64,000 nucleotides of DNA from a virus (lineage: Duplodnaviria; Heunggongvirae; Uroviricota; Caudoviricetes): the IMG/VR virus record IMGVR_UViG_3300027985_001053. One strand, written 5' to 3'. Position 1 is the first letter of the stretch. Every line of letters starts with the position of its first letter. Under the pieces are notes generated by a model that worked only from the letters and a program-made list of their open reading frames with translations, was not told where the DNA came from and did no database searches. Of the stretch, positions 7,392 to 31,135 are shown one piece after another. The translations under genes were made by a program, and so were the position numbers.

Positions 7392-7849
7392 TTGGTGAAT
7401 AAAAGTTTAATGTTTAGTAGTAAAGAAGAAAAATGGCAAACGCCAGATAATGTATTTAATGAATTAAATGAAGAGTTTAATTTTACATTGGATCCTTGTT
7501 GCCAGCATGATAGTGCAAAATGTGATAAATATTATACGCCTGTAGAAGATGGCTTAAGTCAATCATGGGCAAATGAAACGGTCTTTGTAAATCCTCCTTA
7601 TGGTAGAGAATTAAAAAGTGGGTTAAAAAATCACATAATGAAGCTATTTACAATAAAGCCACAGTGGTTATGCTAATACCAGCAAGGACAGATACAAGCT
7701 ATTTTCATGATTATATTTATAATAAGTTTGAAGTTCGATTTATTAGAGGTAGAATTAAGTTTGTAGATCCAGCTACAAAAAAGCAAGGGGATTCTGCTCT
7801 ATTCCCTACAATGATCGTAGTCATGAAGCATAACAGTAAAAGGGATTAA
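7392..7849 (+). pseudogene. dam: DNA N6-adenine methyltransferase (T1/P1-type phage Dam family), disrupted by a frameshift near 7640
   Basis: frame 1 gives WQTPDNVFNELNEEFNFTLDPCC...NPPYGRELK; the overlapping frame continues EAIYNKATVVMLIPARTDTSYFHDYIY...RFIRGRIKF...ALFPTMIVV. Base 7640 must be read twice to join them. Confidence 0.7.
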
Positions 7850-12064: not shown

Positions 12065-13051
12065 TTAACAACGACTAGAAGAACTACTCCCTCCACAAGA
12101 ATTACGAGAGGGTATCCTATGTATTTCGCAACCAGAATATCCAGAGACATTACTAGATAAATTAGTATTGGATCTCTGCTCTATCATAGGTGAGCTGTAC
12201 TTCTTAAGAATAGCGTTTAACGTCTTCTCAGAAGGAGAGGATTTTATTGGACTCATAGGTCTCTTTCCAGTCCAATCAAGATAGCATATTCCATCCGGTT
12301 GAAACACAACTTCAAAGACCTCATCCGAAGGAATAATATCAGTAGGTTCTAGTAAAGAGCTCTTCCAGTATACCTTAGTACCAAGAATCCTCTGAAGAGT
12401 AGTTCGACATACCGGACAAGACCCCTCCCACAATACCCTATAATCATTGAAAGTTAGTTCTACTGGAGTTTTGTCAAGAGTACCATTCTCTTTACGAAAC
12501 CTTACTGCTTCAAAACCCATATTCCTAGCCCATGCGATATAAGCCTCTATAAACTCTCTAGAAGTCAAGTCAGTTATTACACAATTAACACTAATATCAA
12601 TACCTCGTTTTCCATACTCATCTATGATTACAGATAGCTTACTATCCGGTAAATCATAAGTACCTTTAAAAATGCTCTTGTTCTTTGATTCATCATAATG
12701 ATGTCTACTAATGTTAATATGGTCTACTGCTACAGAGACTTGATCTATCTTCTCAAGCAATCCTGTTCCATTTGTTGTTAATAGAATATTAGTATACTTA
12801 TCTCTAAAATCCGGTAGTATCTCAAATACCAAATCGAAGTAAGGTGAAAGCAAAGGCTCTCCTCCAGTTATAGATATTTGATAAAACTTCTTATCTAAAT
12901 TAGTTAAAGTTTCTATTAGATTAGAGATATAAGCCGTTTTTCTAAGTGTAGGAAACTCTACATCCTTAGTATTAAAACAAAAGTCACAGGAAGCATTACA
13001 GCCTCCTGGCATCACTATTGAAAAGTTTGGGTCATTATTCGTTGTCTTCAT
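12065..13051 (-). CDS. radical SAM enzyme (MoaA/viperin-like N-terminal CxxxCxxC class), function unknown
   Basis: GGCNASCDFCFNT cluster at residues 18-25, ITGGEPLL SAM motif, TTNG. aggagg RBS. Unusual Cys/Ser-rich C-terminal tail (GCEIHRIPSRNSCGGSSSSSRC). Confidence 0.75.
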   Translation of the reverse strand: MKTTNNDPNFSIVMPGGCNASCDFCFNTKDVEFPTLRKTAYISNLIETLTNLDKKFYQISITGGEPLLSPYFDLVFEILPDFRDKYTNILLTTNGTGLLEKIDQVSVAVDHINISRHHYDESKNKSIFKGTYDLPDSKLSVIIDEYGKRGIDISVNCVITDLTSREFIEAYIAWARNMGFEAVRFRKENGTLDKTPVELTFNDYRVLWEGSCPVCRTTLQRILGTKVYWKSSLLEPTDIIPSDEVFEVVFQPDGICYLDWTGKRPMSPIKSSPSEKTLNAILKKYSSPMIEQRSNTNLSSNVSGYSGCEIHRIPSRNSCGGSSSSSRC

Positions 13052-13074: not shown

Positions 13075-14202
13075 CTATGCTTTAAAATTATATAAAGGTC
13101 GTACTCTATAAAGTATCTCTACAGAATCTTCCATATACCTTTCTACTGAGAGATAATCTTTGTATGCAGCAGGAGCCTCATCAAGAGTAGACTCTGAAAT
13201 ACAACTAGAATACACACTTTCCATAGACTGTTTAAAAGTTTCTAAATCTAATAACTCTTTGGCCCTCGTCCGAGACATTGTTCTACCTGCACCATAAGGA
13301 GCTGAAAAGTTCCAGTCAGGATTACCTTTACCCCTTCCGATAATAAGACCATCTCTCATATTCCAAGGAATTACTACAAGCTCTCCCAAATTTGCTGATA
13401 TCGCACCCTTACGGATAATCCCAAAGTCAAAATCTATATAATTATGAATAGACTCTACGGTATCTAGAATATCACAATGTAAAAAACTAACAATCTTATC
13501 CATGATTATTCTCCGGTTTAACGATGCATACTCTTGAGCTACTTTCATATGACCTATATACCTATTAGCAGAATTACCTGTTAAGTATTCCATCCCTTTA
13601 GGAATTTCTTCCATAGAAAGCTTTTGTTCTAATTTAAAAGACTCTCTATCCTTTAAAGGTATATTGGTTAAATCTATCCTAGTAGTAGAACATAAGTTCT
13701 CAGCTTCTTTCTGATGATACGTCGCTACCTGTAAACCAAAATTACGAGAACCTGAATGTATCGTTAACCAAAGATTACTCTCCTCATCTTCACCTATCTC
13801 TATAAAGTGATTCCCTCCTCCTAAGGTACCTAGCGATAATAACACCCTCTCACTAGAAAGACTTATATCTGAACAGACTGATAACAACCTCTCTTTGAAA
13901 TCGTCAGGTATCTCAGGGCTACGAGTATTGACTTTAAACCCAGAAGGGATAAACTCTCTAACAAAAGTATCCAAAGACTCAAACCCTATCGCCTTCCTAT
14001 CAAGCTTACAGGATAACATCCCACAACCTATATCTACTCCTATTACAGACCCAGAACCTGCATGTATGTCTGGCATAAATCTCGTCTTACAACCTTCAAA
14101 AGCAGGGTGATTTAAAAATAGCTGTACCTGGTCTAAAGCACTAGAGGCAACATCCTCTGTAAATATCTTACAATCTGTATAAGCTCCTCTTAATTCTATC
14201 AT
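13075..14202 (-). CDS. rtcB: RtcB-family RNA ligase (3'-phosphate/5'-OH)
   Basis: MPDIHAGSGSVIGVDIGCGM, TLGGGNHFIEIG, HSGSRNFG, HNYID, APYGAGRTMSRTRAKEL and AYKD all align with E. coli RtcB. Confidence 0.85.
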   Translation of the reverse strand: MIELRGAYTDCKIFTEDVASSALDQVQLFLNHPAFEGCKTRFMPDIHAGSGSVIGVDIGCGMLSCKLDRKAIGFESLDTFVREFIPSGFKVNTRSPEIPDDFKERLLSVCSDISLSSERVLLSLGTLGGGNHFIEIGEDEESNLWLTIHSGSRNFGLQVATYHQKEAENLCSTTRIDLTNIPLKDRESFKLEQKLSMEEIPKGMEYLTGNSANRYIGHMKVAQEYASLNRRIIMDKIVSFLHCDILDTVESIHNYIDFDFGIIRKGAISANLGELVVIPWNMRDGLIIGRGKGNPDWNFSAPYGAGRTMSRTRAKELLDLETFKQSMESVYSSCISESTLDEAPAAYKDYLSVERYMEDSVEILYRVRPLYNFKA

Positions 14203-14295
14203 CTTTATCTCCTTATTTATTAGATAATAAGCATTATTGACTTAAAATAAAATAAAGTCAATTAAAATCAACTAAAAACCACGAAAATTCCACTT

Positions 14296-14336
14296 CAAAT
14301 TTTAGCCTTCAAAATTTTTAAAACCAGTTTTAAAAA
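14296..14336. repeat. about 40-bp direct repeat, left copy (aaattttagccttcaaaatttttaaaaccagtttt)
   Basis: near-identical copy at 14890..14930 flanks gene 14403..14870. Confidence 0.6.
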
Positions 14337-14402
14337 AAAGACCCCCACCCCCTCTTGCTACTTAACTCTAAGTTATGTATTCTTCTACATAAGGAGATTA
14401 AG

Positions 14403-14870
14403 ATGAATACAACCCTAAGAGAAATATACACACATAACCCATGTAAAGAAGGATTCGCAAGATTAAACTTCACTTTAACAGGTAATCAATGCTTTAACAG
14501 TAATAAACCAAGTACCATGACTAAACATTTCTTTGAATTAAATATTACTAAACAATTCGCACTTCTTCCAGAAGATATAAAAGATAAAGAAATTAGTATG
14601 CTACAAATCCTAGAATCAAATGGTATTAAAGATGCTATATGGGCTCTAAGAACACAACCTATACAACAGACTTCTCAGATCAGAGAAGAGTTACTTAAGC
14701 AGACTCTTACAGCTACAATAGCCTGTGAAAGAACTTCCCTACCTCCCGAGAAATACTCCTACCTTCTCTACCTACTAGAACGAGATCTTTTTATCTTCTC
14801 TGAAAAAGTATGTGAAGAAGAAAGAATCTCCTGGGAAGAGATTGAGAATATACTTAGAAAGCATCTTTAA
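14403..14870 (+). CDS. hypothetical protein
   Basis: ATG at 14403 preceded by aaggagatta; ORF-track start 14355 lacks an RBS. Confidence 0.45.
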   Translation: MNTTLREIYTHNPCKEGFARLNFTLTGNQCFNSNKPSTMTKHFFELNITKQFALLPEDIKDKEISMLQILESNGIKDAIWALRTQPIQQTSQIREELLKQTLTATIACERTSLPPEKYSYLLYLLERDLFIFSEKVCEEERISWEEIENILRKHL

Positions 14871-14889
14871 GAAAACCCTCAAAATATAT

Positions 14890-14930
14890 TCCAAATTTTA
14901 GCCCTCGAAATTTTTAAAACCAGTTTTTAA
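14890..14930. repeat. about 40-bp direct repeat, right copy
   Basis: see 14296..14336. Confidence 0.6.
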
Positions 14931-15213
14931 AACACTTAAAAAGTTTTAGCAATACAAATGTATCCCATGTAGCTAATAACAGATAAAGGACGAAGACTTT
15001 AAAAACCCATAGCAGTGTATAAAGTATATCTTCAAAGTAAGTATAACCTCTTAAGAGTAACAGGGTATGGAAGAGAAAAGATAAGAGTACTATCGGTTAT
15101 CGTCTCTAAGCTCTGGGGGAATACTTCTCGACAATAGCGTAACAGGGTATCGGGGTATCAGAGAGGCTTCGGGATACAAGTAATAATTACTTTTTGTGGA
15201 GTAGGTAGTCTTT

Positions 15214-15345
15214 GAGGGTATTTGGGTATTTTTGGTATTTGGGTATCTGGGTATTCGGGGGTGAGTAGAGAGACTTCTTCGAGAGTTCTAGAGAGCTAAG
15301 GGTATTGGATGCAGGGGATTGGGTATTTGGGTATTTTTGGTGCAG
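15214..15345. repeat. GGGTAT(T) heptad-like tandem repeats (two clusters), G-tract rich
   Basis: gagggtatttgggtatttttggtatttgggtatctgggtattcggggg and gggtattggatgcaggggattgggtatttgggtattttt. Confidence 0.7.
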
Positions 15346-15457
15346 GGCGTATGAGCGTAAGCTCTAAGTATCGAAATTTCGTTCTGGTTTCCAGCCTTCG
15401 ATAAGTCAAAAGGACTTTCCCTTGGGGCGGTGTTGCGTATATAGGGATGGGGGGGGG

Positions 15458-15790
15458 TTAGTGTTGCACAAAGTGAAATAACCCTGAACCAGGTTCTTAA
15501 GATTGCAATATCAGATCATTAGTGTTGCATAAAGTGAAACAACACTGATCCAGGTTTACCAGCTTGCAATACCAAATAATTAGTGTTGCACAAAGTGAAA
15601 TAACCTTGAACCAGGTTCTTAAGATCGCAATATCAGATCATTAGTGTTGCATAAAGTGAAATAACCCTGAACCAGGTTCTTAAGATTGCAATATCAAATA
15701 TCAAATAATTAGTGTTGCACAAAGTGAAATAACCCTGAACCAGGTTCTTAAGATTGCAATATCAAATAATTATTACTGCATAAATCGGGA
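15458..15790. repeat. five tandem 61-bp direct repeats, an iteron-like array, preceded by a G9 homopolymer
   Basis: unit ttagtgttgcaYaaagtgaaataaccctgaaccaggttcttaagattgcaatatcaRat repeated head-to-tail at 15458, 15519, 15580, 15641 and 15709. Confidence 0.85.
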
Positions 15791-15888
15791 TAACATTTTA
15801 TAGATATCAAAAAAATACCCCATCGCTCAAAATCGAGCTATAAAGCCACGTTATGTGAAAGTTATACATTTATATTACTTTTATATAT

Positions 15889-15932
15889 AAATCATTTCTA
15901 ATAGCTCGATTATAAGCTATTAGAAATGATTT
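15889..15932. promoter_or_regulatory. perfect 18-bp inverted repeat in the AT-rich region
   Basis: aaatcatttctaatagct-cgattata-agctattagaaatgattt. Confidence 0.6.
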
Positions 15933-16219
15933 TTGATTTATGAGTTACTACTCTATAACTATCTTTTTATATGCTTTATCAAATAAAAACCGTATAGGGA
16001 ATTTTCCTATACAAAATGAGTAAAATTCCCTATATATTTTTTAAATTTTTAGTTCTATTATTAACACATAGGGACGGGACGCACACATATATACAAGCAG
16101 TAAAAAAGCTTGTATATATATATAAATATATATATGTGCTTAAAAACTTTTAAAAAGTTTTAAAAAATGTTGGCAACTACTAAAAATGTTGTTAATATTA
16201 AAGAGTAGAGGAGTTAACG

Positions 16220-16411
16220 ATGGACGTGTTAGCAAAAGATGTTTGTTTTATAGAAAATGGGTTTGGCGATGGTATGCTCTATAATAAAGATGGATCTGCA
16301 TGTTGGCAACTGCCGGCGTGTATAAAAAAAGAGGATATCATTCAAGGTTTCCCTCACTACATCATTAAGAGAGAAGCCTTGGACAAAAACGAGATTAGAA
16401 AATGGTTCTAA
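16220..16411 (+). CDS. hypothetical protein
   Basis: 63 aa ORF. Confidence 0.35.
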   Translation: MDVLAKDVCFIENGFGDGMLYNKDGSACWQLPACIKKEDIIQGFPHYIIKREALDKNEIRKWF

Positions 16412-16432
16412 TCTAGAAAAAAGGAGAATAAT

Positions 16433-16618
16433 ATGAAAGACATTAAAATTGAAGAAGTTACAGAATTTGATAGTTATTTGTCAAGCTCCGCAAGTTTTGA
16501 AATGAATTTGCTTTTAGCAAATTCATCTTTTTTAAAAGGCGTTAAAAGTCATGAAGCAGAGAAACTAAATGTTTCTCTTATCGACCTACATTTCGGGCGT
16601 GACGTCCGGAATGCATAA
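16433..16618 (+). CDS. hypothetical protein
   Basis: 61 aa; RBS aaggagaa. Confidence 0.35.
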   Translation: MKDIKIEEVTEFDSYLSSSASFEMNLLLANSSFLKGVKSHEAEKLNVSLIDLHFGRDVRNA

Positions 16619-16630
16619 AAACTTTTTATC

Positions 16631-16666
16631 AAGTATATTGACACAAATTAATATACTCGATAATAT
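16631..16666 (+). promoter_or_regulatory. promoter family B copy 1: TTGACA, 17-bp spacer, TAATAT, with palindrome caagtatat/atatactcg
   Basis: sigma70-like spacing; same cassette at 18450 and 19216. Confidence 0.6.
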
Positions 16667-16671
16667 ATACA

Positions 16672-16716
16672 AGCTTGCAATGGTTTTTATAGTAGTTCGA
16701 ATCTACTAGCAAGCTA
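16672..16716 (+). ncRNA. tRNA-like minihelix leader, copy 1 (acceptor stem agcttgc/gcaagct, T-arm tagtag-TTCGAAT-ctacta, discriminator A)
   Basis: starts 6-7 nt after the -10 box, so it would be the 5' end of the transcript. Confidence 0.5.
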
Positions 16717-16742
16717 TAAATAAAAATTTTAAGGAGAATAAG

Positions 16743-17234
16743 ATGGAATTTACTTTAGAAGAAATCAATGAAATTATGGATAGAAATAATGGGGATCTAA
16801 TCCTCAAGGATACACTTATCAAAACATTACCAGAAGGGTTAAAGGTTCAAGGAAACTTGGATCTGACAGATACCGACATTCAAGAGTTACCAAACGGGTT
16901 AATAGTTGGAAAAAACTTAAACTTGTACTTTACAAAGGTAACGTCGTTACCTGAAAATTTAAAAGTTGGTGGATGGGTAGAGCTACAAGGGACTAAGATA
17001 GAGACGTTACCAAAAGGTTTAGAAGTAGGCTTATCCCTAGATGCAAGCTATACACCAATGACAACACTACCAAGAGATTTAAAAATTGGTGGTTACCTTA
17101 GTCTGAGAGGGACTAAGGTAATAACATTACCAAAAGGGTTAACCGTAGGAACCGTTTTAGATATAACGAATACAAAAGTTAAGTCTTTACCTAAAGACTT
17201 AAAAGTAGGAGGTAAAATCTACAGCGATCTATAA
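16743..17234 (+). CDS. LRR-family protein, short form (7 repeats, no C-terminal domain)
   Basis: MEFTLEEINEIM leader, then 20-residue repeats LxLxxTxIxxLPxxLxVGGx. Confidence 0.6.
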   Translation: MEFTLEEINEIMDRNNGDLILKDTLIKTLPEGLKVQGNLDLTDTDIQELPNGLIVGKNLNLYFTKVTSLPENLKVGGWVELQGTKIETLPKGLEVGLSLDASYTPMTTLPRDLKIGGYLSLRGTKVITLPKGLTVGTVLDITNTKVKSLPKDLKVGGKIYSDL

Positions 17235-17237
17235 GAT
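17232..17237 (+). promoter_or_regulatory. TAAGAT -10-like box preceding minihelix copy 2
   Basis: same spacing to the minihelix as in copy 1; weak -35. Confidence 0.3.
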
Positions 17238-17244
17238 TAATACA

Positions 17245-17290
17245 AGCTTGTAATGGTTTTATATAGTGGTTCAATTCCACTAGCAAGCTA
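17245..17290 (+). ncRNA. tRNA-like minihelix leader, copy 2 (agcttgt/gcaagct with a U-G pair; T-arm tagtgg-TTCAATT-ccacta)
   Basis: compensatory change in the T-stem relative to copy 1. Confidence 0.5.
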
Positions 17291-17314
17291 TAAACCAAAA
17301 TTTAGGAGTTTAAT

Positions 17315-17857
17315 ATGGAATTCGAATTTGTAATGGGATCTACAATCCATAATACAATTATTATTGCAGAAATAAATATCAGAAATCATTTTTCAATATC
17401 TTTTAATGAGGTTCTTCCGTTTGAAATGACAGAAGAAAGAGATCTAGAACAAAAAGAAAGCTTTCTTGAAAATTTTGAAGAAGAAGAAAGACAAGAAATA
17501 GAGGAACAGATCTATTATCTTGGTTATGAAGGATATTTTGATATATCTTTATATTCAAATAATTTTAATTTTCCAGAACTGGAAAATGATATCTATTTTG
17601 AATCTATAGGGTGTGGTCAGGGGGATCATAGAAAAGATCTTATATACTCTATTAACTCTATTGATAAAAATACAGATACAAAAGATATCAATACAAAGAT
17701 CTTTGACCTCTGGGATAGATTACATTTAAAGGAAATGGAGAGTTTATCAGAATCTGATAAACAAGAAATTAATAACTTAATTGAAAAAATCAAAACGTTT
17801 GATCTAGATGATCAAATGGAAATATTAGCAAGAAAATTGCTAATAGAGGATAAATAA
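17315..17857 (+). CDS. hypothetical acidic protein
   Basis: 180 aa ORF downstream of minihelix 2. Confidence 0.45.
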   Translation: MEFEFVMGSTIHNTIIIAEINIRNHFSISFNEVLPFEMTEERDLEQKESFLENFEEEERQEIEEQIYYLGYEGYFDISLYSNNFNFPELENDIYFESIGCGQGDHRKDLIYSINSIDKNTDTKDINTKIFDLWDRLHLKEMESLSESDKQEINNLIEKIKTFDLDDQMEILARKLLIEDK

Positions 17858-17858
17858 C

Positions 17859-18437
17859 ATGAAACCATATGATAGTATAAAAACGATGTATAAGTCAAAA
17901 AGTCTTATACATCGTAAAAAAGTTTGTTTAAACAATGATGTTGTTATTGTAACAACAGACGAGCAAGCTAATAAGTTAAGTCCATTGACTTTATATTCTT
18001 GGATAGGACGCCTAAACGTTAATCTAAGAATGTACAATAGCAGTAGTCAATTCGGTGATATGGTTTTTTCAAACAAAGAAGACGCTGTTATTGAAAAAAT
18101 CAGAGAATTGAAGTTTATACAAAAAAATGTTAATGACTGTATTAATGACTTAAAAGAAGAAATTTCTACTATACGACGTATTAGATCTATAGCTAAAAAG
18201 CTATATACTTTCTCTATGGAAAATTCATATTTAAGCAAACGAGATCTAGATCTTATTATATCTAGATATGAATTAAACTTAACCTTAAATGAGTTTAAAA
18301 ACTTAAGCTTAATTATGGGAATTCAATTTAAGAGTAATAATCTTGTTTCTATATGGTTAGGAAAAAAATCAAAACTTAAGATTGAAACAATTATTAAAAT
18401 AATAGAAAAATTGAGATATCAAATAAAAATAAATTAA
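17859..18437 (+). CDS. hypothetical protein
   Basis: 192 aa ORF. Confidence 0.45.
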   Translation: MKPYDSIKTMYKSKSLIHRKKVCLNNDVVIVTTDEQANKLSPLTLYSWIGRLNVNLRMYNSSSQFGDMVFSNKEDAVIEKIRELKFIQKNVNDCINDLKEEISTIRRIRSIAKKLYTFSMENSYLSKRDLDLIISRYELNLTLNEFKNLSLIMGIQFKSNNLVSIWLGKKSKLKIETIIKIIEKLRYQIKIN

Positions 18438-18449
18438 ATTATCTTTATC

Positions 18450-18485
18450 AAGTATATTGACAAAAATTAATATACTTGATAATAT
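18450..18485 (+). promoter_or_regulatory. promoter family B copy 2 (TTGACA 18457..18462, TAATAT 18480..18485)
   Basis: palindrome caagtatat/atatacttg flanks the -35 box and spacer. Confidence 0.6.
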
Positions 18486-18516
18486 GTAGAAAGATAAAAA
18501 CTTGAGGAGTTTGAAG

Positions 18517-19203
18517 ATGAATAATTTTGACATGAACAGTAAAGGAATAAATATCATAGCTAATATTTTTTATGATGAATGTCTTTCGCAAGACAACTTT
18601 GACCGAAATTGTAAACTTATAGATAAAAACAAAGATTTTTTTATATACACTGATTATGGTAACTTAAGCAGTGATTTCTATATATCTTTGAAAGAAGAGT
18701 CCAGAACAGATCTCGAAGATGTTATAGAACAAGAACAAATTTATTGCGGATGCTCTATAGATGAGCTTGATATTCAAGAGCTTCAAGCTCTTATAGAAAA
18801 TGAGTTATCATATATAGATTTATTTTTTATCTGTAAAAAATATCATCTTGAGATTGAACAAAATTATGAGTTATTAACGATTCGAGGATTCTCTCAAGGT
18901 GACATCTTAAAAATATTTGTAAATATTGAAGAGTTTGAAAAGGTGACAGGAGCTGTTTTTAACGATATCAAAGAATCTTTAAAAGAAGATTTAATTAATT
19001 ATTGTTATAAAACACCATTAACTGCACGAATAACAATAAACGACCAAGAGATCTATTTGGACGGAATTGACGGCAATTATATTTATTATGATGCAGATAC
19101 TAAAAAACAAATTATAGAAATTTGTTTAAAAAGTGTATCAGATATTGATCAAGATCTTTTAAAAGAAGAACTTGAGGAATTATTACCAGAAGAAATAAAT
19201 TAA
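18517..19203 (+). CDS. hypothetical acidic protein
   Basis: ATG at 18517 preceded by gaggag; ORF-track start 18502 is a TTG inside the RBS. Confidence 0.45.
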   Translation: MNNFDMNSKGINIIANIFYDECLSQDNFDRNCKLIDKNKDFFIYTDYGNLSSDFYISLKEESRTDLEDVIEQEQIYCGCSIDELDIQELQALIENELSYIDLFFICKKYHLEIEQNYELLTIRGFSQGDILKIFVNIEEFEKVTGAVFNDIKESLKEDLINYCYKTPLTARITINDQEIYLDGIDGNYIYYDADTKKQIIEICLKSVSDIDQDLLKEELEELLPEEIN

Positions 19204-19215
19204 ACTAATTTTATC

Positions 19216-19251
19216 AAGTATATTGACAAAAATTAATATACTTGATAATAT
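19216..19251 (+). promoter_or_regulatory. promoter family B copy 3 (TTGACA 19223..19228, TAATAT 19246..19251)
   Basis: identical cassette. Confidence 0.6.
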
Positions 19252-19282
19252 TTAGAAAGATAAAAACTTGAGGAGTTTAAAA

Positions 19283-19579
19283 ATGATAAAAATGATAGTC
19301 CAAGACACGTATACAAAGAGAGATATAAACGGAAACGTTTATCACGCAATTACAATTATCAACCTTGAAAATAGAGAATCCTTTACTACTAGTTCTCCCA
19401 ACTTAAGTAATGTTACCAGTATTTTGCAGAAAGCTGGTTTCGATTATAGTCAGATTTACACAATTGAAACTTGTACAGGATCGGCAAGGCATAGCTCTTT
19501 ACCAAAAAGTATATACCTTGATCCTTGCAGGTATACGGAAGAATGGAAAAAACAATTAATAGGAATTAATTGTTTATAG
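19283..19579 (+). CDS. hypothetical protein
   Basis: ATG at 19283 with gaggag RBS. Confidence 0.45.
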   Translation: MIKMIVQDTYTKRDINGNVYHAITIINLENRESFTTSSPNLSNVTSILQKAGFDYSQIYTIETCTGSARHSSLPKSIYLDPCRYTEEWKKQLIGINCL

Positions 19580-19582
19580 GAT

Positions 19583-19612
19583 GTTAAGAGGTATTCATAA
19601 ACCTCTTAATAT
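19583..19612 (+). terminator. hairpin aagaggt-attcataa-acctctt followed by aatattt
   Basis: inverted repeat after the stop of the 19283 gene. Confidence 0.4.
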
Positions 19613-19644
19613 TTAAAATTAAGATGACGACAAAAGAGGATAAT

Positions 19645-20484
19645 ATGGAATATACTTTAGAAGAACTGAATAAAATGATGGATGGAAACTATGGAAACTT
19701 AGATTTAAACTTCAATGATACTAAAGAAATATCATTACCGATATCGTTACCTAAAGGGTTAACTGCTCGAGGATGGTTAGATTTAGCTCATACGGAAATT
19801 GAATCATTACCTGAAGGGTTAACGGTTAGGGGTACCTTATATTTAAGATATACCCCAATTATAGAATTACCAGAAGGGTTAACTGTAGGAAGAACCTTAG
19901 ATTTAGAAGGTACTCCAATTAAATCTTTACCAAAAGGGTTAACCGTAGGAGGAGACTTAAATTTAAAATATACTAAAATTAAATCACTACCAAGAGATTT
20001 AAAAGTTGGTGGAAAAATCTACAGTGATTTACCTAAAAATGAACTAAATTACACAAAACTTCAACAAGGTGAGTATGTTGAAAATTCATACCTATATGCC
20101 GATGAAATATTCACTCTTGTTAAATCTAAAAAGTCTTTTGATAAATACACATATTTTATTGGAGAGTTTAAAGGTCAAAACGTACTTTATGATGGTACTT
20201 ATTACGCACATTGTGAAAACATCAAGAAAGGACTTAGGGATCTTAACTTCAAACATTCTCAAGATAGAAGAATTGAACAATACAAAAATTTAAAATTAAC
20301 AAGTAATCTATCTTTTGATGAATCAAAAACGATGTACAGAATTTTAACTGGAGCATGTAGGCAAGGTACTGAAAGTTTCATTAGTAACTTAAAAACAATA
20401 AAAGATCAGTATACAATACAGGAATTAATAGATCTAACTGTTAATCAATATGGGCATGAAGTTTTTAAGAAGTTTTTTAAATAA
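19645..20484 (+). CDS. LRR-family protein (5-6 repeats plus conserved C-terminal domain)
   Basis: MEYTLEELNKMM leader; RBS agaggataat identical to other family members; ORF-track start 19624 includes the RBS. Confidence 0.6.
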   Translation: MEYTLEELNKMMDGNYGNLDLNFNDTKEISLPISLPKGLTARGWLDLAHTEIESLPEGLTVRGTLYLRYTPIIELPEGLTVGRTLDLEGTPIKSLPKGLTVGGDLNLKYTKIKSLPRDLKVGGKIYSDLPKNELNYTKLQQGEYVENSYLYADEIFTLVKSKKSFDKYTYFIGEFKGQNVLYDGTYYAHCENIKKGLRDLNFKHSQDRRIEQYKNLKLTSNLSFDESKTMYRILTGACRQGTESFISNLKTIKDQYTIQELIDLTVNQYGHEVFKKFFK

Positions 20485-20498
20485 AAAGTTGTACTTTT

Positions 20499-20539
20499 CA
20501 CTTGTTTATGTTGACTAAAATATAAATAAGTGATAAGAT
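20499..20539 (+). promoter_or_regulatory. promoter family A copy 1 (TTGACT 20511..20516, 17 bp, TAAGAT 20534..20539) inside palindrome cacttgtttat/ataaataagtg
   Basis: five copies in total. Confidence 0.6.
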
Positions 20540-20546
20540 TATTATA

Positions 20547-20592
20547 AGCTTATAATGGTTTTATATAGTAGTTCGATGCTACTAACAAGGTA
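20547..20592 (+). ncRNA. tRNA-like minihelix leader, copy 3 (T-arm intact, acceptor 3' strand degenerate)
   Basis: tagtag-TTCGATG-ctacta; 5' strand agcttat lies within palindrome tataagcttata. Confidence 0.35.
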
Positions 20593-20603
20593 AGGAGATT
20601 TTT

Positions 20604-20924
20604 ATGATTATGGCATTTAAAAGATATCTAGAAATAAATGATTTTACGCTTATAGATTGTATTGCTTTAGAAAATAGCACCTATCAAATTTCTTATTATG
20701 ATAATAAGAGCAAGGCAATAAAAACAAAACTTGTACCAAAATATAAAAAGTCTTATACGCTAAGATATGTTAATAGAAATGAAGTTTTTTATGTAGATTT
20801 TAGTCCTATGACTTCAAAGGAAGCTAAAATTATTAAAAATAATTCTCTGTTTTATCCTAACCGAACAATAGATATTGTTCCATATGGTTTTTATCTTGAG
20901 TGGAAAAATGGGCAATTGCTATAA
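20604..20924 (+). CDS. hypothetical protein
   Basis: 106 aa; RBS aaggagat. Confidence 0.45.
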   Translation: MIMAFKRYLEINDFTLIDCIALENSTYQISYYDNKSKAIKTKLVPKYKKSYTLRYVNRNEVFYVDFSPMTSKEAKIIKNNSLFYPNRTIDIVPYGFYLEWKNGQLL

Positions 20925-20938
20925 AATAGCATATAACA

Positions 20939-20984
20939 AGCTTGTAATGGTTTTATATAGTAGTTCGATTCTACTAGCAAGCTA
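20939..20984 (+). ncRNA. tRNA-like minihelix leader, copy 4 (agcttgt/gcaagct; tagtag-TTCGATT-ctacta)
   Basis: same architecture, followed by RBS agaggag and an ATG. Confidence 0.5.
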
Positions 20985-21008
20985 TAAATCAAAATAGAGG
21001 AGTTAAAT

Positions 21009-21239
21009 ATGTTTACAAAAAGAAATAGAATTTCCAGTATCGAGAAAAAGTTAAATATCCGAACGGAATTAAAACTTAAAGATTATAGTGATAGTTTAAA
21101 TTCTACTTTTAAAGTATTTAGACTAATCGATGAGTATCCTACAAATACGACAGGAATCTATAAATCAACTGGTCAGAAATATGAATATGATGGTATTTTT
21201 ACTAAGCAACAATTGATTGACGAATGCAACAAACTATAA
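21009..21239 (+). CDS. hypothetical protein
   Basis: 76 aa ORF. Confidence 0.4.
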   Translation: MFTKRNRISSIEKKLNIRTELKLKDYSDSLNSTFKVFRLIDEYPTNTTGIYKSTGQKYEYDGIFTKQQLIDECNKL

Positions 21240-21264
21240 ATCAGATTTTTAGGAGTGATGAAAA

Positions 21265-21690
21265 ATGGATTATGAAACTTTAATAAATAACAAGATCGAA
21301 CAGCATAAAAAATTAAAACAAGAAAAAAAGGATAAAAGGACTTCTCAAGAAATAAGACTTGAGGAAGTAGCTAATCAAATTGAAAAGTTTTATGAAGCTA
21401 TAGACAAAAGTAACTTAAGATTTAACAAAAATAACTCTATAGAGAGTGTAACCTTTAAACAGCTATTTCATAAAAACAATATGCTACTCCGTAGATCTAC
21501 AGGTACCGAAATTAAGTTTAAAACACCTATTTTAAGATACGAACATCTTACACTAATGTTAAATAGCAATCTAGACTTGATATTTGTATTAAGTTCTATG
21601 TATGCTTCGAGTACACCAAATAAAATATTTAGAAATATTGACGATTTAATTGGTTTTATGACTACTAAAATTATTGATATGAGCATATAG
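21265..21690 (+). CDS. hypothetical protein
   Basis: 141 aa ORF. Confidence 0.4.
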   Translation: MDYETLINNKIEQHKKLKQEKKDKRTSQEIRLEEVANQIEKFYEAIDKSNLRFNKNNSIESVTFKQLFHKNNMLLRRSTGTEIKFKTPILRYEHLTLMLNSNLDLIFVLSSMYASSTPNKIFRNIDDLIGFMTTKIIDMSI

Positions 21691-21705
21691 AAAAAGGAGT
21701 TTAAG

Positions 21706-21999
21706 ATGAATATAGAACTAATTGTAAATAATGAACCATGTTGGTTACATGATGTAAGATTTAATGCAGAAGCGTTAAATGATTATTTAACATATGATGG
21801 TGATAATTACCATATATCAGAAACTGATTTTAATTGGTGGTCGGAATATAACAATAAATATAATAATGCCGATGATAAATTAAAAGAGCTGTTTGAGAAA
21901 AATGAAGAGTTAAAAGAGGAATTCTTCCATTTTATCATAGAGAAAGATTTTAATGATTACCCTGAGCAAATTCTTTATTTTATAGAGTTGAATAAATAA
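21706..21999 (+). CDS. hypothetical acidic protein
   Basis: 97 aa; RBS aaggag. Confidence 0.4.
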   Translation: MNIELIVNNEPCWLHDVRFNAEALNDYLTYDGDNYHISETDFNWWSEYNNKYNNADDKLKELFEKNEELKEEFFHFIIEKDFNDYPEQILYFIELNK

Positions 22000-22025
22000 G
22001 GTTTTTAGTTAAAATGTGTACTTTT

Positions 22026-22066
22026 CACTTATTTATGTTGACTAAAATATAAATAATTGGTAAGAT
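22026..22066 (+). promoter_or_regulatory. promoter family A copy 2 (TTGACT 22038..22043, TAAGAT 22061..22066)
   Basis: conserved cassette; right palindrome arm partly degenerate. Confidence 0.55.
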
Positions 22067-22096
22067 TATTACAAGATAAAGACAAGAGAGGATGTT

Positions 22097-22858
22097 ATGG
22101 AATATACTTTAGAAGAACTAAATAAAATGATGGAAGAGAATGATGGAAACTTAAGTTTATATAATACTCCGATTAAATCATTACCAGAAGGGTTAAAGGT
22201 TGGAGGTTGGTTAGATTTAAGAAATACCCCAATTAAATCGTTACCAGAAGGATTAACAGTTGGAGGATATTTAGATTTAGAAAATACTGAAATTGAATCT
22301 TTACCAGAAGGATTAACCGTTGGAGGATATTTAGCTTTAAGGTATGCTCCAATTACAACGCTACCAGAAGATTTAAAAGTTGGAGGTACCATATTTAGGG
22401 ATTTACCTGAAAATGAACTCAATTATACAAAACTTAAACAAGGTGATTATGTTAAAGATGAATATCTATATGCCGATGAAATCTTAACTCACATTAAAGC
22501 TAAAAAATCTTTTGATAAGTACACATATTTTATTGGTAAATTTAAAGATAAAAACGTACTTTATGATGGAACTTATTATGCTCACTGTAAAAACATCAAA
22601 CAAGGAATTAAGGATCTTAGCTTCAAACATGCTAAAGATAGAAGAATTGAACAATACAGAAATCTCAAGCTAACAAGTATTCTATCTTTTGAAGAATCAA
22701 AAACAATGTATCGAGTTTTAACTGGAGCATGTAGGCAAGGAACTGAAAGCTTTATTAGTAACTTAAAAACAATAAAAGATCAGTATACAGTACAGGAATT
22801 ACTAGATCTAACTGTTAATCAATATGGGCATGAAACTTTTAAGAAGTTTTTTAGTTAA
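22097..22858 (+). CDS. LRR-family protein (4 repeats plus C-terminal domain)
   Basis: MEYTLEELNKMM leader; C-terminal YTYFIGKFKDKNVLYDGTYYAHCKNIKQG...TGACRQGTESF. Confidence 0.6.
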   Translation: MEYTLEELNKMMEENDGNLSLYNTPIKSLPEGLKVGGWLDLRNTPIKSLPEGLTVGGYLDLENTEIESLPEGLTVGGYLALRYAPITTLPEDLKVGGTIFRDLPENELNYTKLKQGDYVKDEYLYADEILTHIKAKKSFDKYTYFIGKFKDKNVLYDGTYYAHCKNIKQGIKDLSFKHAKDRRIEQYRNLKLTSILSFEESKTMYRVLTGACRQGTESFISNLKTIKDQYTVQELLDLTVNQYGHETFKKFFS

Positions 22859-22872
22859 AAAGTTGTACTTTT

Positions 22873-22913
22873 CACGTATCTATGTTGACTAAAATATAGA
22901 TACGTGATAATAT
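22873..22913 (+). promoter_or_regulatory. promoter family A copy 3 (TTGACT 22885..22890, TAATAT 22908..22913); palindrome arms cacgtatctat/atagatacgtg
   Basis: both palindrome arms differ from other copies by matching changes. Confidence 0.6.
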
Positions 22914-22943
22914 TATTACAAGATAAAGAAAAGAGAGGATAAT

Positions 22944-23558
22944 ATGGAATATACTTTAGATGTGTTGAATAAAATGATGGAAGAGAATGATGGAGACTTA
23001 GATTTAAAACATACTGGGATTGAATCGTTACCAGAAGGGTTAACAGTTGGAGGATATTTAGATTTAAGCTATACTTCAATTACATCATTACCTAATGGGT
23101 TAACTGTTGGAGGATGGTTAGATTTAAGAAATACTCAAATTACAACACTACCAGAAGGGTTAACGGTTGGAGGTAGCGTATATTTAAGATATACTCAAAT
23201 TACATCGTTACCTAAAGGATTAACGGTTGGAGGAACCTTAGATTTAGAAGGTACTACAATTACATCGTTACCAAAAGGATTAACCGTTGAAGGAAGCTTA
23301 TATTTAGACTATTCTCGAATAACTTCATTACCAGAAGGGTTAACTGTTGGAGGTTGGTTAGATTTAAGTTATGCTCCAATTGAATCGTTACCAGAAGGGT
23401 TAACTGTTGGAGAAATCTTATATTTAGAAGGTACTAAAATAACATCGTTACCACAAGATTTAAAAGTTGGTGATAAAATCTACGGAGATTTACCAAAGAA
23501 GGAACTACACTGCACAAAACTCCAACAGGACGATTATATTGCATTTGAATACCTATAA
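22944..23558 (+). CDS. LRR-family protein (8 repeats), C-terminal domain deleted
   Basis: ends ...YIAFEYL*; the following 23559..23600 encodes a remnant LAPVKSKKFFS* of the family C-terminus. Confidence 0.55.
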   Translation: MEYTLDVLNKMMEENDGDLDLKHTGIESLPEGLTVGGYLDLSYTSITSLPNGLTVGGWLDLRNTQITTLPEGLTVGGSVYLRYTQITSLPKGLTVGGTLDLEGTTITSLPKGLTVEGSLYLDYSRITSLPEGLTVGGWLDLSYAPIESLPEGLTVGEILYLEGTKITSLPQDLKVGDKIYGDLPKKELHCTKLQQDDYIAFEYL

Positions 23559-23619
23559 GCGGAAGGAATCTTAGCTCCTGTTAAATCTAAGAAGTTTTTT
23601 AGTTAAAATGTGTACTTTT

Positions 23620-23660
23620 CACTTATTTATGTTGACTAAAATATAAATAAGTGATAAGAT
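23620..23660 (+). promoter_or_regulatory. promoter family A copy 4 (TTGACT 23632..23637, TAAGAT 23655..23660)
   Basis: palindrome cacttatttat/ataaataagtg. Confidence 0.6.
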
Positions 23661-23690
23661 TATTACAAGATAAAGAAAAGAGAGGATAAT

Positions 23691-24008
23691 ATGAAAAGTT
23701 TTAGAGAAATGAGTCCTAAGGAATGGAGTGAAGCAGTAGAGAAACTAGCTAGTGATTTATCAAATACAGACTTAAATGTATTCCGAGAAAGTACATTGAG
23801 AAGAATGTATGCTGATATGTATGGTGTAGATGATGATATAGAAAGAGCTTATTCCATAGAGGATATAAAGAACTGTTTATATGACGAGGATATTACTGAT
23901 GAACAAGCTGATAAAATATCCATCTGGCTAGAGACTAAAGGAGATAGTACTCTTACATTTTGGGAGAATATAACGAATGCTTATGATACATTAAAGGAGG
24001 AGTTCTAA
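23691..24008 (+). CDS. hypothetical acidic protein
   Basis: 105 aa, same 5'UTR as the LRR genes. Confidence 0.45.
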   Translation: MKSFREMSPKEWSEAVEKLASDLSNTDLNVFRESTLRRMYADMYGVDDDIERAYSIEDIKNCLYDEDITDEQADKISIWLETKGDSTLTFWENITNAYDTLKEEF

Positions 24009-24565
24009 TGGTATACATACTTTACAGCAATAAAATAAAATATCTGCATAGTCTGGAAGGAAAAGAGATTAACAAAAGTGATTTAGAATCTCTAGGTACT
24101 ACTTACATGCCAATAACTGATTTTACTGAGTTGTTTAATAATGATTATGATGCTATTAAAAGCATGAATCGTAACGGTCACATAACATATATTAACGTAA
24201 AAGAAAATAAGTCTGATACTCATAATGAAGTATTATATAAAGAAATAACAGCAAGCCGTCAAATATACTTAATAGACAATACTTATTTTGTATATAATCA
24301 TGAGTTTACATATTTCAATGTAGCTTTAGATGAAAAGAGTTGTTTGAACAGTAGTAATAGTTTAGGGTCTTTTGATACTGAAGAACTTGCTATGGAGTTT
24401 ATAGATAAACTTCAATCAGAAAATAAGTCTGATACTCCAGAAATCGTAAAAGACTTAAATACGATAAAAGAGTTTGTTTTAAGATTTGATACTCCTGATG
24501 ATTTAGATTTAGAAGTATCAAAATTACTAGATAAATATATTGCTAAATATTCGAGAGGAGAATAG
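24008..24565 (+). CDS. hypothetical protein
   Basis: 185 aa; start overlaps the previous stop. Confidence 0.45.
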   Translation: MVYILYSNKIKYLHSLEGKEINKSDLESLGTTYMPITDFTELFNNDYDAIKSMNRNGHITYINVKENKSDTHNEVLYKEITASRQIYLIDNTYFVYNHEFTYFNVALDEKSCLNSSNSLGSFDTEELAMEFIDKLQSENKSDTPEIVKDLNTIKEFVLRFDTPDDLDLEVSKLLDKYIAKYSRGE

Positions 24566-24566
24566 A

Positions 24567-24950
24567 ATGAGACATAGCATAAAAAATGAAATCGTGGCTG
24601 GTTTTAAAACAGCTTTATTATGGATACACCAAGAAGATTTTGAAGATATCGATACTTTTTCAGATTCTGCTGAATTGTTTATTGATAACTTAGTAAAGGA
24701 TTTTATCAAAGAGACTAATCTCTTTGACCTAATGGGAGCTTTTACACCTTTAAACGATGAATACTCTATAGGGGAACTTATAGGACATGATTTGTTTTTA
24801 TCGGTGGGAGGATTTGGAGCTGGTTTCTTGAGTAAACCTAATATCTATAATGGTTTCGAAAATAATCTTGATAACTTTGTAGAAAAAAAGGTTACATGGA
24901 TAAACGATATTTTCATAAATGATGAAAGTCATGTTATAGAGATAGAGTAA
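24567..24950 (+). CDS. hypothetical protein
   Basis: ATG at 24567 with gagaggag RBS (ORF-track start 24540 lacks one). Confidence 0.4.
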   Translation: MRHSIKNEIVAGFKTALLWIHQEDFEDIDTFSDSAELFIDNLVKDFIKETNLFDLMGAFTPLNDEYSIGELIGHDLFLSVGGFGAGFLSKPNIYNGFENNLDNFVEKKVTWINDIFINDESHVIEIE

Positions 24951-25037
24951 TAAATGTTGGTACTTTTTACTAGGGAAAAAGTAGTAGTTTTTAGATAAGA
25001 GTAGTAAATATTACAGTTTTAAGAGAGGATAAAGAAG

Positions 25038-25664
25038 ATGTTTAAAGAAAATGATTTAGTAAAATCTAAAGTAAGTAGTGAAATCTATACAGTTCAAAAG
25101 GTTTCAGATTATGTTGTACTAAGTAATGGTGGTAGATACTTAGAGGAAGAGCTTAGAGAAGCTACTAAAGAGGATCTATACCAAGAGTTGGAATCTAAAG
25201 TAAGAGTTTGGGTTAATAGAGAGTTTAACAGTATTCCTTTAAGATTAGTGGAAGCTCTGGTAGAAAATGAAGGACAGAATTTATCAGAGTTTATACATCC
25301 TTTAGACTGTTTAGACATTAAAGAATCTATTGAAAATATATCTTCCCAGCTTGAGGATGATGATTTTTCAGAAGAGGATAGAGAGTATTTAGAAGAGGAG
25401 TTGCAAACTCTTAATGAAAAGTTAGATAGCTTAAACGATGACAATTATCCTTTACATGGTACATTGTTTGAGTTGAACTCTACAGATGAAGATATTATAG
25501 AAGCAGCTAAGAAAATAGGACTAGGAGTTATATCTGGGAATGATTACTTTAACTCTATGTTATTTATGACAGAAACTGGAAGCAACTTCTATAGAAAGTT
25601 TTGGATACCTTTATTCTTGGAGCTATATCCTGATACTAGGTATGATGGTATAGAGATAGGTTAA
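25038..25664 (+). CDS. hypothetical highly acidic protein
   Basis: 208 aa, D/E-rich. Confidence 0.45.
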   Translation: MFKENDLVKSKVSSEIYTVQKVSDYVVLSNGGRYLEEELREATKEDLYQELESKVRVWVNREFNSIPLRLVEALVENEGQNLSEFIHPLDCLDIKESIENISSQLEDDDFSEEDREYLEEELQTLNEKLDSLNDDNYPLHGTLFELNSTDEDIIEAAKKIGLGVISGNDYFNSMLFMTETGSNFYRKFWIPLFLELYPDTRYDGIEIG

Positions 25665-25738
25665 AGAGAGTGTTATTATATCCTTCTACCGTTGGTGGAA
25701 GGTAGTATTACTAATATGAGTTATGGAGATAAATAGAT

Positions 25739-25957
25739 ATGGAAAATATACTAATTAAAGATGTGGTATTACTGAATACTGTAATAGATTTTACAATGGC
25801 ATTAAACAATGTATCTGTAAAGGATTTAAAAGATATGGAGCTATCTAAGGCTGTTGATTATGTTATAGGGTTAATTCCTGAAACTAAGAAAGATGAAATG
25901 GATATTGATAATTTGCATGAAGTAGTTGAATACTGCTTGATAAACAAATTAAGCTAA
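25739..25957 (+). CDS. hypothetical protein
   Basis: 72 aa ORF. Confidence 0.35.
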   Translation: MENILIKDVVLLNTVIDFTMALNNVSVKDLKDMELSKAVDYVIGLIPETKKDEMDIDNLHEVVEYCLINKLS

Positions 25958-26161
25958 TAGAATTATGGTTAAAGTAGGCTTTAATGTTTATTTTAACCAA
26001 TCAAAACTTTTCCTAGAGCGTAGACTGTACTTTTTACCTCTAGGAGTTGACTAAAAATCATTTTACTGTTTATTTTATAATTTATTTAATTGGTAAATTT
26101 CACCAATTGACTGGCGAGATTTACCAATCGAAAAAATTAAATAAAAATCATAGCTTTTTGA

Positions 26162-26190
26162 TTGACACAACAGTATATGTATGTTAATAT
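26162..26190 (+). promoter_or_regulatory. sigma70-like promoter TTGACA, 17 bp, TAATAT
   Basis: gattgacacaacagtatatgtatgttaatatt; inverted repeat ttggtaaat/atttaccaa upstream at 26088..26140. Confidence 0.5.
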
Positions 26191-26213
26191 TATTACATAA
26201 AGGAGATAATCAG

Positions 26214-26690
26214 ATGGATTTAAGAGCAATAGATACTTTAGTACTACCAATGACAGATAAGAGATATTTAGTATGTTCTTTTGATGGTAATGAGTTATCA
26301 TCTCTAAAGGATATATGTGATATGGAGACTAATACCTTGGATAAGGCTTTAAAACTTTGTGGAATATTATCTGAGAAGTATGAGGTATGTTTTGTATATG
26401 ATATATTACATGGAAGGGTATCGTATACAGGAGTGACAACACCTTCTGGATGTTTTGTTAAGAAGATACAGTATGATTTGATAGAGTCTTATTTTAGAAA
26501 TATTTATCATATAGAGGATCTTTATAGAGTAGGTTTTATAGGAGCTAAGGATATGCTTATAGATACTTTTCCTAAAGATACTTTATTTACGATGGTACCA
26601 GGTTTAAGTGTTGTTGTAGCGTATACTAGAGAGTTTAATGTAATATATGATAAGTTTGTTACTACTTATCAAGTAATAGGGACTATTTAA
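26214..26690 (+). CDS. hypothetical protein
   Basis: ATG at 26214 with aaggagata RBS. Confidence 0.45.
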   Translation: MDLRAIDTLVLPMTDKRYLVCSFDGNELSSLKDICDMETNTLDKALKLCGILSEKYEVCFVYDILHGRVSYTGVTTPSGCFVKKIQYDLIESYFRNIYHIEDLYRVGFIGAKDMLIDTFPKDTLFTMVPGLSVVVAYTREFNVIYDKFVTTYQVIGTI

Positions 26691-26695
26691 AGTCT

Positions 26696-26965
26696 TTGCT
26701 TTATGCTATGGTGGAGGTAAATACTATGCTAACAGGATATAGAAGATTTAAAACGATTGTTGATTTACTTAAGAGACAATCGGAGGCTTATACTAAGATT
26801 CATAGTGTGAATGCTTGGGTATATGATTATGGAACTTCTGAAGAGATTAAAGAGCATAATAAAGTAATTAGAGAAGGCTCTGAGGAATTAAGAGTTGTTG
26901 AGGAAGAACTTAAAGCTTTAGATGTTACCTTTGAAGAAGTAACACATGCTTATAGATGTTACTAG
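26696..26965 (+). CDS. hypothetical protein
   Basis: 89 aa ORF. Confidence 0.4.
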   Translation: MLYAMVEVNTMLTGYRRFKTIVDLLKRQSEAYTKIHSVNAWVYDYGTSEEIKEHNKVIREGSEELRVVEEELKALDVTFEEVTHAYRCY

Positions 26966-27067
26966 TCTAACTTTAAGATGTGTATTAGTGGTTTTAAAGT
27001 ATTTAATGCTTTAGAGTTTAATAAGAGTATATCTAAGTATACTACATTATATAGAGGAGTTGTTATA

Positions 27068-31132: not shown

Positions 31133-31135
31133 ATT

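Follow-up and report, generated by a model that had tools for sequence, protein, structure and literature searches.

Iteron origins of replication, among them lambda ori, P1 oriR and the origins of theta plasmids, carry direct repeats in the same orientation. The usual iteron is 17-22 bp long and recurs every 21-23 bp. Partition sites can likewise be built of tandem units, and sopC of the F plasmid consists of 12 units of 43 bp. The Vibrio satellite PLE possesses a 2.7-kb non-coding region with four types of repeats, including origin iterons that are bound by RepA (PMC7145576). At the RNA level, type III antitoxin loci contain 1.9-5.6 copies of a repeat of 31-62 nt, followed by a palindromic terminator and then by the toxin gene, with gaps of up to 340 bp (PMC3401426, Table 2). 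The myovirus PhiTE escapes ToxIN by means of an intergenic pseudo-ToxI expanded from 1.5 to 4.5-5.5 copies (PMC3475682). Here we describe a tandem array of 61-bp repeats in a tailed phage (Caudoviricetes, IMG/VR record IMGVR_UViG_3300027985_001053). The DNA analysed was a stretch of 64 kb, called the window below, within a 129,693-nt JGI contig. Pfam and PHROGs scans for annotation covered about 95 open reading frames (ORFs) in it, and statements on genes that were not found refer to these ORFs of the 64 kb.

The locus adds a new, orphan case to the familiar tandem direct repeats of phage control regions. With iteron origins it shares direct repeats in one orientation with a conserved core of about 21 bp, a large non-coding region, and adjoining AT-rich DNA together with further classes of repeats. 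With the type III arrays toxI, cptI and tenpI and the pseudo-ToxI of PhiTE it shares tandem repeats without spacers followed by a palindromic terminator, and one of these precedents is intergenic in a large myovirus. Sequence alone cannot decide between protein-binding DNA sites and an RNA gene built of repeats. We tentatively favour a cis-acting, protein-binding array at the DNA level. The RNA alternative is nearly as likely. Because the phage belongs to a lineage without cultured or metagenomic relatives, in which hardly anything can be annotated, this large non-coding and repeat-rich locus is a natural way into its biology.

The repeat array and its variation

Five full copies of the unit follow each other head to tail on the + strand between 15458 and 15769. 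This copy number derives from a short-read metagenome assembly and should be treated with caution: in a second, independent assembly of this phage, from Logan, the sequence stops 30 nt into the first unit (r1) and resumes at 16070. The phage is also present in SRR7216773. Tandem Repeats Finder placed the array at 15458-15772 with a period of 61 bp, 5.0 copies and a score of 448, and also gave a super-period of 122 bp (2.6 copies, score 496). Successive copies start 61, 61, 61 and 68 bp apart, the last distance being due to a duplicated 7-bp AATATCA in copy 4. The initial annotation of the sequence had given five tandem repeats with this period and these starts, and both Tandem Repeats Finder and alignment reproduced them. 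It had also placed the array in the largest intergenic region of the window, 14871-16219, which is correct: the next largest non-coding stretch measures 615 bp, and the gap is the sole repeat-rich one in a densely coded genome. A CRISPR array had been dismissed for want of unique spacers, and rightly so. The period of 61 bp is within the CRISPR range, but the whole unit repeats, variable spacers are absent and there are no cas genes. The sequence attgcaat, described as a palindrome at the end of each unit, is indeed palindromic (ATTGCAAT) but sits at unit positions 45-52. Degenerate partial units border the array on both sides (Table 1). The left one ends in a run of nine G, the only homopolymer of at least seven G or C in the window.

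Every unit contains the same 21-bp box, TTAGTGTTGCAYAAAGTGAAA. This 21-mer occurs five times in 64 kb, always on the + strand and always in the array, against 0.01 occurrences expected from shuffles. Units r1, r3, r4 and r5 are identical to one another at 56-60 of 61 positions, and r2 matches the others at 47-52. Fourteen of the 61 positions vary among the five units, and 13 of these lie outside the first 21 bp (hypergeometric P for at most one inside = 0.012, a value that depends largely on the single diverged copy r2). Nine of the 10 changes that separate r2 from the consensus are in the last 40 bp, the remaining one being a C/T difference at position 12. The units also carry two short palindromes. 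GAACCAGGTTC is intact in four of the five units. ATTGCAAT is perfect in r1, r4 and r5 only, with CTTGCAAT in r2 and ATCGCAAT in r3.

The array is non-coding, as its period is not a multiple of three and all three frames seem, on inspection by eye rather than by computation, to contain stop codons. A protein-coding repeat, also under an alternative genetic code, was rejected on these grounds. A promoter array was rejected as well: a scan and manual inspection found no unit with acceptable -35 and -10 hexamers on either strand, and the 21-bp box has no further copy upstream of any gene. Finally, the unit matches nothing else in the window, which disposes of a template repeat of a diversity-generating retroelement acting on the nearby leucine-rich-repeat genes.

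Possible readings: protein-binding DNA sites or a repeat-built RNA

In the reading that we favour, each unit would offer one conserved box in constant orientation, and several copies of a putative sequence-specific protein would load on these boxes side by side. The loaded proteins would build a multimeric nucleoprotein complex. Our leading guess at its function is replication, as the phage's origin or as an element that controls the process; less probably it would control transcription or serve partition. We infer all three elements of this proposal, namely protein binding, the DNA rather than a transcript as its target, and replication initiation as the outcome. That the array is specifically a replication origin we regard as doubtful, even as the leading guess.

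The internal organisation of the array argues for binding sites. A conserved core of about 21 bp within a freer spacer is the pattern expected under binding-site selection, and it is the pattern seen here. An iteron array is expected to contain at least three repeats of about 17-22 bp in the same orientation. In this array the 21-bp box is present five times at a spacing of 61 bp, in one orientation and nowhere else in the window, and the units carry DNA palindromes in addition. The location counts in favour as well, being the largest non-coding stretch and the only one that bears repeats, with a second set of short same-strand repeats upstream (10 copies of GGGTAT) and an AT-rich region downstream. 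That of PLE offers a general precedent for origins in repeat-rich non-coding regions. The results of the RNA searches given below, with folding not above shuffles and no Rfam match, also favour DNA. If the array were an origin, it would provide a handle for replication studies and vector construction, and it would represent an unusually long-period design of iterons.

Other observations weigh against this reading. The period is three times the usual iteron spacing, 61 bp as opposed to about 22 bp, and does not correspond to full turns of the helix, so that the boxes are not helically phased. The conservation of the box could be explained by a gene-conversion boundary. It is seen within this phage only, as neither an array homologue nor a close phage relative was found in any collection searched. 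Unit r2 has lost the perfect form of both palindromes and r3 that of one, which makes them less conserved than the non-palindromic box, and selection on them may be absent. The sequence resembles no known origin. DnaA boxes with at most one mismatch are absent from 14.2-16.3 kb. GATC is not enriched, the four GATC sites of the array being no denser than nearby. IHF-like sites (2 in the array, 10 in the window) are uninformative. Every turn of the cumulative GC skew in the window, including the one at about 15 kb, coincides with a change of gene orientation, and the skew is positive in the + strand genes to the left as well as to the right of the locus. It therefore reflects transcription and coding bias and says nothing about replication. 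In addition, the array is situated upstream of a + strand terminator and is not shielded by it, a position that makes its transcription probable.

The initial annotation had proposed an origin or partition site at the boundary between a minus-strand replication/repair block and a + strand accessory block. An architecture resembling that of binding sites is seen, but every contextual argument for replication fails or is uninformative. The strand switch is not at the array but at 14203-14354, and a + strand gene of 155 codons lies in between (14403-14870). The genes of the minus-strand block, RtcB, a radical-SAM protein and peptide deformylase (Pdf), belong to RNA repair and metabolism; none is a replication gene. 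A search for the initiator called for by the proposal detected none, nor any gene for a polymerase, helicase or primase. The AT-rich stretch with perfect palindromes reported behind the array is present, with a GC content of 0.16-0.27 across 15.8-16.2 kb and palindrome arms of 18 bp (15889-15932) and 12 bp (16087-16119). However, it ranks fourth or fifth in AT-richness within the window, and by their hairpin and T-tract form the long palindromes look like transcription terminators.

This last point leads to the main alternative, in which the array would form the body of a non-coding + strand transcript of about 1 kb, starting at approximately 14.25 or 14.94 kb, ending at the 15.94-kb terminator and acting as RNA. 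We regard it as a possibility rather than a probability. No ORF and no terminator-like site lie between the stop codon at 14870 and the strong + strand terminator, which begins 120 nt past the last full unit, and the two other longest perfect hairpins of the genome are found at gene ends (31103-31140 and 51302-51343). A minus-strand terminator at 16014-15980 would shield the array from antisense transcription. The non-coding region has at its start a second copy of a 41-bp element that is also found in the upstream gene's 5' leader. With many G and few C on the + strand (skew up to +0.64), the leader of the transcript would presumably be a poor substrate for Rho. Against transcription, neither a promoter of the class used by this phage (see below) nor a sigma-70-like site is present in 14871-15457, so transcription would have to start upstream of 14403, and a leader of 590 nt is atypical.

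On the + strand the unit is predicted to form an 8-bp stem of GUGUUGCA with UGCAAUAU, containing two G-U pairs and enclosing a small hairpin. Three of the five substitutions in predicted stems preserve pairing by changing G-U to G-C, which works on the + strand only, but we estimate that this is not significant. Compensatory double changes are absent from these stems. Neither strand of the units, the whole array or the leader folded better than its shuffled controls (z from +0.5 to -2.2). The array had no Rfam match at the gathering score or at E up to 10, antitoxin and ribozyme families included; as a positive control, the same tool detected the four group I introns of another phage contig described below. 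Tandem self-cleaving ribozymes as substrates of RtcB were considered and dropped, since the search up to E = 10 matched neither hammerhead, twister, pistol or hatchet nor HDV-like ribozymes. No tRNA or tmRNA gene was found.

The most specific version of the RNA alternative is a decoy similar to a type III antitoxin, comparable to the pseudo-ToxI of PhiTE, whose units would be bound and perhaps cut by an endoribonuclease toxin of the host and would thereby neutralise it. We consider it unlikely. A unit of 61 nt in five copies with a palindromic terminator is within the published type III ranges, although both values are near the upper limits and the unit size is at the extreme upper end. PhiTE provides the precedent of a myovirus with an intergenic antitoxin mimic of 4.5-5.5 copies. 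The array lies in the accessory region and adjoins an RNA-repair gene, and RtcB homologues in other phages neighbour the counter-defence genes Tad8, Acb3 and Gad2. ToxN-type nucleases produce ends that RtcB joins. An equally unlikely reading makes the array part of a counter-defence RNA gene, whose transcript of about 1 kb would offer five 61-nt modules as a decoy or antitoxin mimic to a host RNA-targeting abortive-infection nuclease from an undescribed type III-like family, with RtcB resealing the cuts that carry 2',3'-cyclic phosphate and 5'-OH ends. Unlike the type III loci (PMC3401426, PMC3475682), the array lacks a downstream toxin gene and an abutting promoter, neither a stable fold nor a pseudoknot is predicted for it, it does not resemble known antitoxins, no cognate was found in a host, and its leader is long (590 nt) and G-rich. 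A gene resembling ToxN, CptN, TenpN or AbiQ was not detected among the downstream ORFs (16220-19203) by Pfam, PADLOC or PDB sequence searches, but a mimic carried by a phage does not require one. The divergence of r2, spread over two thirds of the unit, is difficult to reconcile with recognition of the RNA in its entirety, and exact-pattern scans found no matching array in 185,579 species genomes (GTDB) or in IMG/VR. If a transcribed repeat RNA were indeed located beside RtcB, RNA mimicry of host suicide systems would extend from the laboratory-evolved PhiTE to wild phages. Should it act in counter-defence, no naturally expanded array of a toxin-less antitoxin mimic would have been seen in an environmental phage before it, nor one paired with an RNA-repair enzyme.

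It might be asked whether the array has any function at all. Slippage or unequal recombination in a dispensable spacer could produce a selectively neutral minisatellite, and both the 122-bp super-period and the 7-bp micro-duplication indicate recent duplication dynamics. Homologues, significant structure and an associated gene were not found, as would be expected of such a sequence. This explanation is nevertheless improbable: the genome is otherwise tightly packed with this as its sole repeat-rich gap, variable sites avoid the 21-bp box, and decayed copies at both edges suggest that the central copies are kept homogeneous. Less probable again is an operator or enhancer at which a transcription regulator of the phage would act. 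Placed on the left edge of the accessory (early-type) block, it would control the switch between the divergent RtcB unit and the + strand block with 11 promoters. The non-coding region does end exactly where this + strand promoter series begins (16170 to 29500), and the window contains a gene for a Rha-like regulator (1033-1644) and a weak match to sigma-70 region 4. However, the nearest promoter of the class is 400 bp away from the array with terminators in between, no other promoter region contains the 21-bp box, and no regulator is linked to the array.

A centromere-like partition site, analogous to F sopC or to parS/parC and serving to segregate a plasmid-like prophage, is very unlikely. 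As in sopC and other tandem-repeat centromeres, the units measure tens of bp and each carries short palindromes, and their length is nearer to the 43 bp of sopC than to iterons. In contrast to sopC, conservation within the unit is lowest in the inverted repeats, and no partition operon was detected although such sites normally adjoin their own par operon: ParA/ParB, ParM/ParR, TubZ/TubR and ribbon-helix-helix proteins gave no matches, and integrase, repressor or plasmid-maintenance genes were not seen. We give as little credit to a packaging, terminus or DNA-entry signal, that is, a terminase site of the pac or cos type, a terminal-repeat boundary or an injection stop like that of T5. Such regions are repeat- and palindrome-rich non-coding stretches, and the locus is large and non-coding, combines several repeat classes with palindromes, and lies beside small early-type genes. 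Two independent assemblies break at it as well. These breaks are accounted for by repeated 31-mers, however, and the terminase gene is 36 kb away. The DNA-level binding array remains the reading that we prefer.

Flanking genes, terminators and promoters

Table 1. Positions of the repeat units and of the features around them in the 64-kb window
Feature	Position	Strand	Basis or remark
RtcB RNA ligase	13075..14202	-	Pfam RtcB 1.1e-48, phrog_1075 3e-110
41-bp element, copy 1, in 5' leader of Imm5-like gene	14296..14336	+	38/41 identical to 14892-14932
155-aa gene P0001, distant relative of Imm5-like immunity proteins	14403..14870	+	phrog_18326 6.7e-9; called in Logan contig
41-bp element, copy 2, at start of non-coding region	14892..14932	+	window holds only two copies
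G/T-rich tract with 10 GGGTAT motifs	15054..15346	+	arrays of 8-9 bp period at 15216-15259 and 15319-15341; Tandem Repeats Finder, 8-bp period
Degenerate partial unit GGTGTTGCGTATATAGGGATGG	15428..15457 (approx.)	+	ends in G9 run 15449-15457; alignment, repeat family D8
Repeat unit r1	15458..15518	+	Tandem Repeats Finder, alignment, 21-mer
Repeat unit r2, most diverged	15519..15579	+	10 differences from consensus
Repeat unit r3	15580..15640	+	alignment
Repeat unit r4, 68 bp, AATATCA duplication in linker	15641..15708	+	Tandem Repeats Finder, alignment
Repeat unit r5, equal to consensus	15709..15769	+	alignment, no differences
Degenerate partial unit TTATTACTGCATAAATCGGGATAAC	15770..15794 (approx.)	+	17/25 identical to unit start, manual count
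Intrinsic-terminator-like hairpin, 18-bp perfect stem, 8-nt loop, then TTGATTTATG	15889..15942	+	longest perfect hairpin in window
Terminator-like hairpin, 9-bp stem and T tract	15980..16014	-	inside larger inverted repeat 15984-16043
AT-rich nested palindromes, perfect 12-bp arms 16087-16119	16080..16141	.	palindrome search
Promoter-like TTGGCA-N17-TAATAT, preceded by TG	16170..16198	+	first of 11 promoters of the same class

Besides the genes mentioned so far, the annotated ORFs of the window encode thymidylate synthase, dUTPase, a dCTP-deaminase-like protein, Dam, leucine-rich-repeat proteins and structural proteins. RtcB is preceded by a promoter-like TTGACT-17-AATAAT at 14261-14233 on the minus strand and is transcribed divergently from the + strand unit that holds the array. 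The radical-SAM protein next to it (12065-13051, minus strand) matched models of prokaryotic viperin (pVip; PADLOC 6e-18), which may reflect generic radical-SAM similarity. In other phages RtcB homologues were found within a few kb of Tad8, Acb3 and Gad2 (L008:251-2497, L254:1409-2128, L255:8153-8872), suggesting that phage RtcB belongs to anti-defence islands.

The only homologues of the 155-aa protein P0001 are P0002 and P0003, both of which carry the Pfam domain Imm5_like. Its gene is bracketed by the 41-bp direct repeats, and it looks as if a cassette had been inserted there while the target or leader was duplicated, or as if a regulatory element had been duplicated. With one copy in the gene's leader and the other where the non-coding region starts, the arrangement suggests that the Imm5-like gene may be a cassette inserted into an older unit that led from a promoter to a non-coding RNA. 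Between the second copy and the array, the G/T-rich tract has a GC content of 40-50% and contains 10 of the 35 GGGTAT motifs of the window, all on the + strand, as well as the sole G-quadruplex-capable motifs in 64 kb. An identical 21-mer is present at 15216 and 15321 within it.

On the other side of the array, the region 15770-16219 folds much better than shuffled sequences (z = -8.4). Within it, at 16170, begins a series of 11 near-identical + strand promoters of the form TTGACW-N17-(TGn)TAATAT at 16170, 16638, 18457, 19223, 20511, 22038, 22885, 23632, 26162, 27385 and 29500, which would drive the accessory block up to 29.5 kb. At five sites inspected (18445-18482, 19211-19248, 22872-22907, 23619-23654 and 27375-27404) the -35 hexamer is located in the loop of a hairpin of 10-14 bp, and the promoters at 22885, 23632 and 27385 are followed by a conserved leader, TATTACAAGATAAAGAAAAGAGAGGATA. 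They are similar to promoter-stem-loop cassettes in the hyperplastic regions of T4-type phages and suggest a Gram-positive-like host. The first two ORFs past the gap, 16220-16411 (63 aa) and 16433-16618 (61 aa), are in the same frame and separated by one stop and 7 codons. They may represent a disrupted gene or one that is read through; the fused sequence had no match in Pfam or PDB. A helix-turn-helix apparent by eye in a 192-aa ORF was not confirmed by Pfam.

Relatives and further observations

Searches of phage and plasmid databases gave no match to the array. Exact-pattern searches of IMG/VR with a two-copy pattern, a 24-mer and the GGGTAT 21-mer found nothing, nor did two exact-pattern scans of GTDB genomes. 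The 21-mer of the box had four matches in IMG/VR, all within a coding gene of an unrelated phage, and these were attributed to chance. With a permissive pattern of three 8-mer copies the hits ran into the hundreds but were unrelated loci, presumably repeats of CRISPR period or other repeats, and BLAST of 249 of them yielded no true match. Scans of IMG/VR with the capsid and RtcB proteins did not find close relatives. The matches of capsid and terminase to cultured phages are all remote (22-27% identity), and the best RtcB homologues are at most 61% identical and lie in non-syntenic contexts without comparable arrays. Outward from the window, only more small genes without known function were found.

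Repeats also occur within genes of this phage. Several paralogous accessory genes contain tandem repeats with a period of 60 bp, encoding leucine-rich-repeat-like units of 20 residues (19796-19993, 22163-22386, 22997-23457 and 27495-28695), with up to 20 copies in a protein of 573 aa. A coding repeat of 87 bp in 2.1 copies (56290-56468) lies inside a structural gene of 687 codons. A perfect (TATC)9.5 microsatellite occupies 51342-51379 in a short gap between the genes at 50395-51273 (+) and 51384-52001 (-). The Dam-type adenine methyltransferase is split over two overlapping ORFs, 7392-7676 and 7664-7849, and looks like a frameshift.

Two other contigs showed features of their own. On a bacterial contig a 40-bp tandem repeat in 2.7 copies, with a palindrome inside it, lies between the type I restriction gene hsdR and a Fic-domain gene (L010:17837-17945). 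The 154-kb phage contig JGI Ga0392328_0000034 (L008), which carries an RtcB homologue, possesses four group I introns (Rfam RF00028, 53-87 bits) within 2.6 kb (L008:3583-6159). They lie in a gap without called genes and probably split one gene several times.

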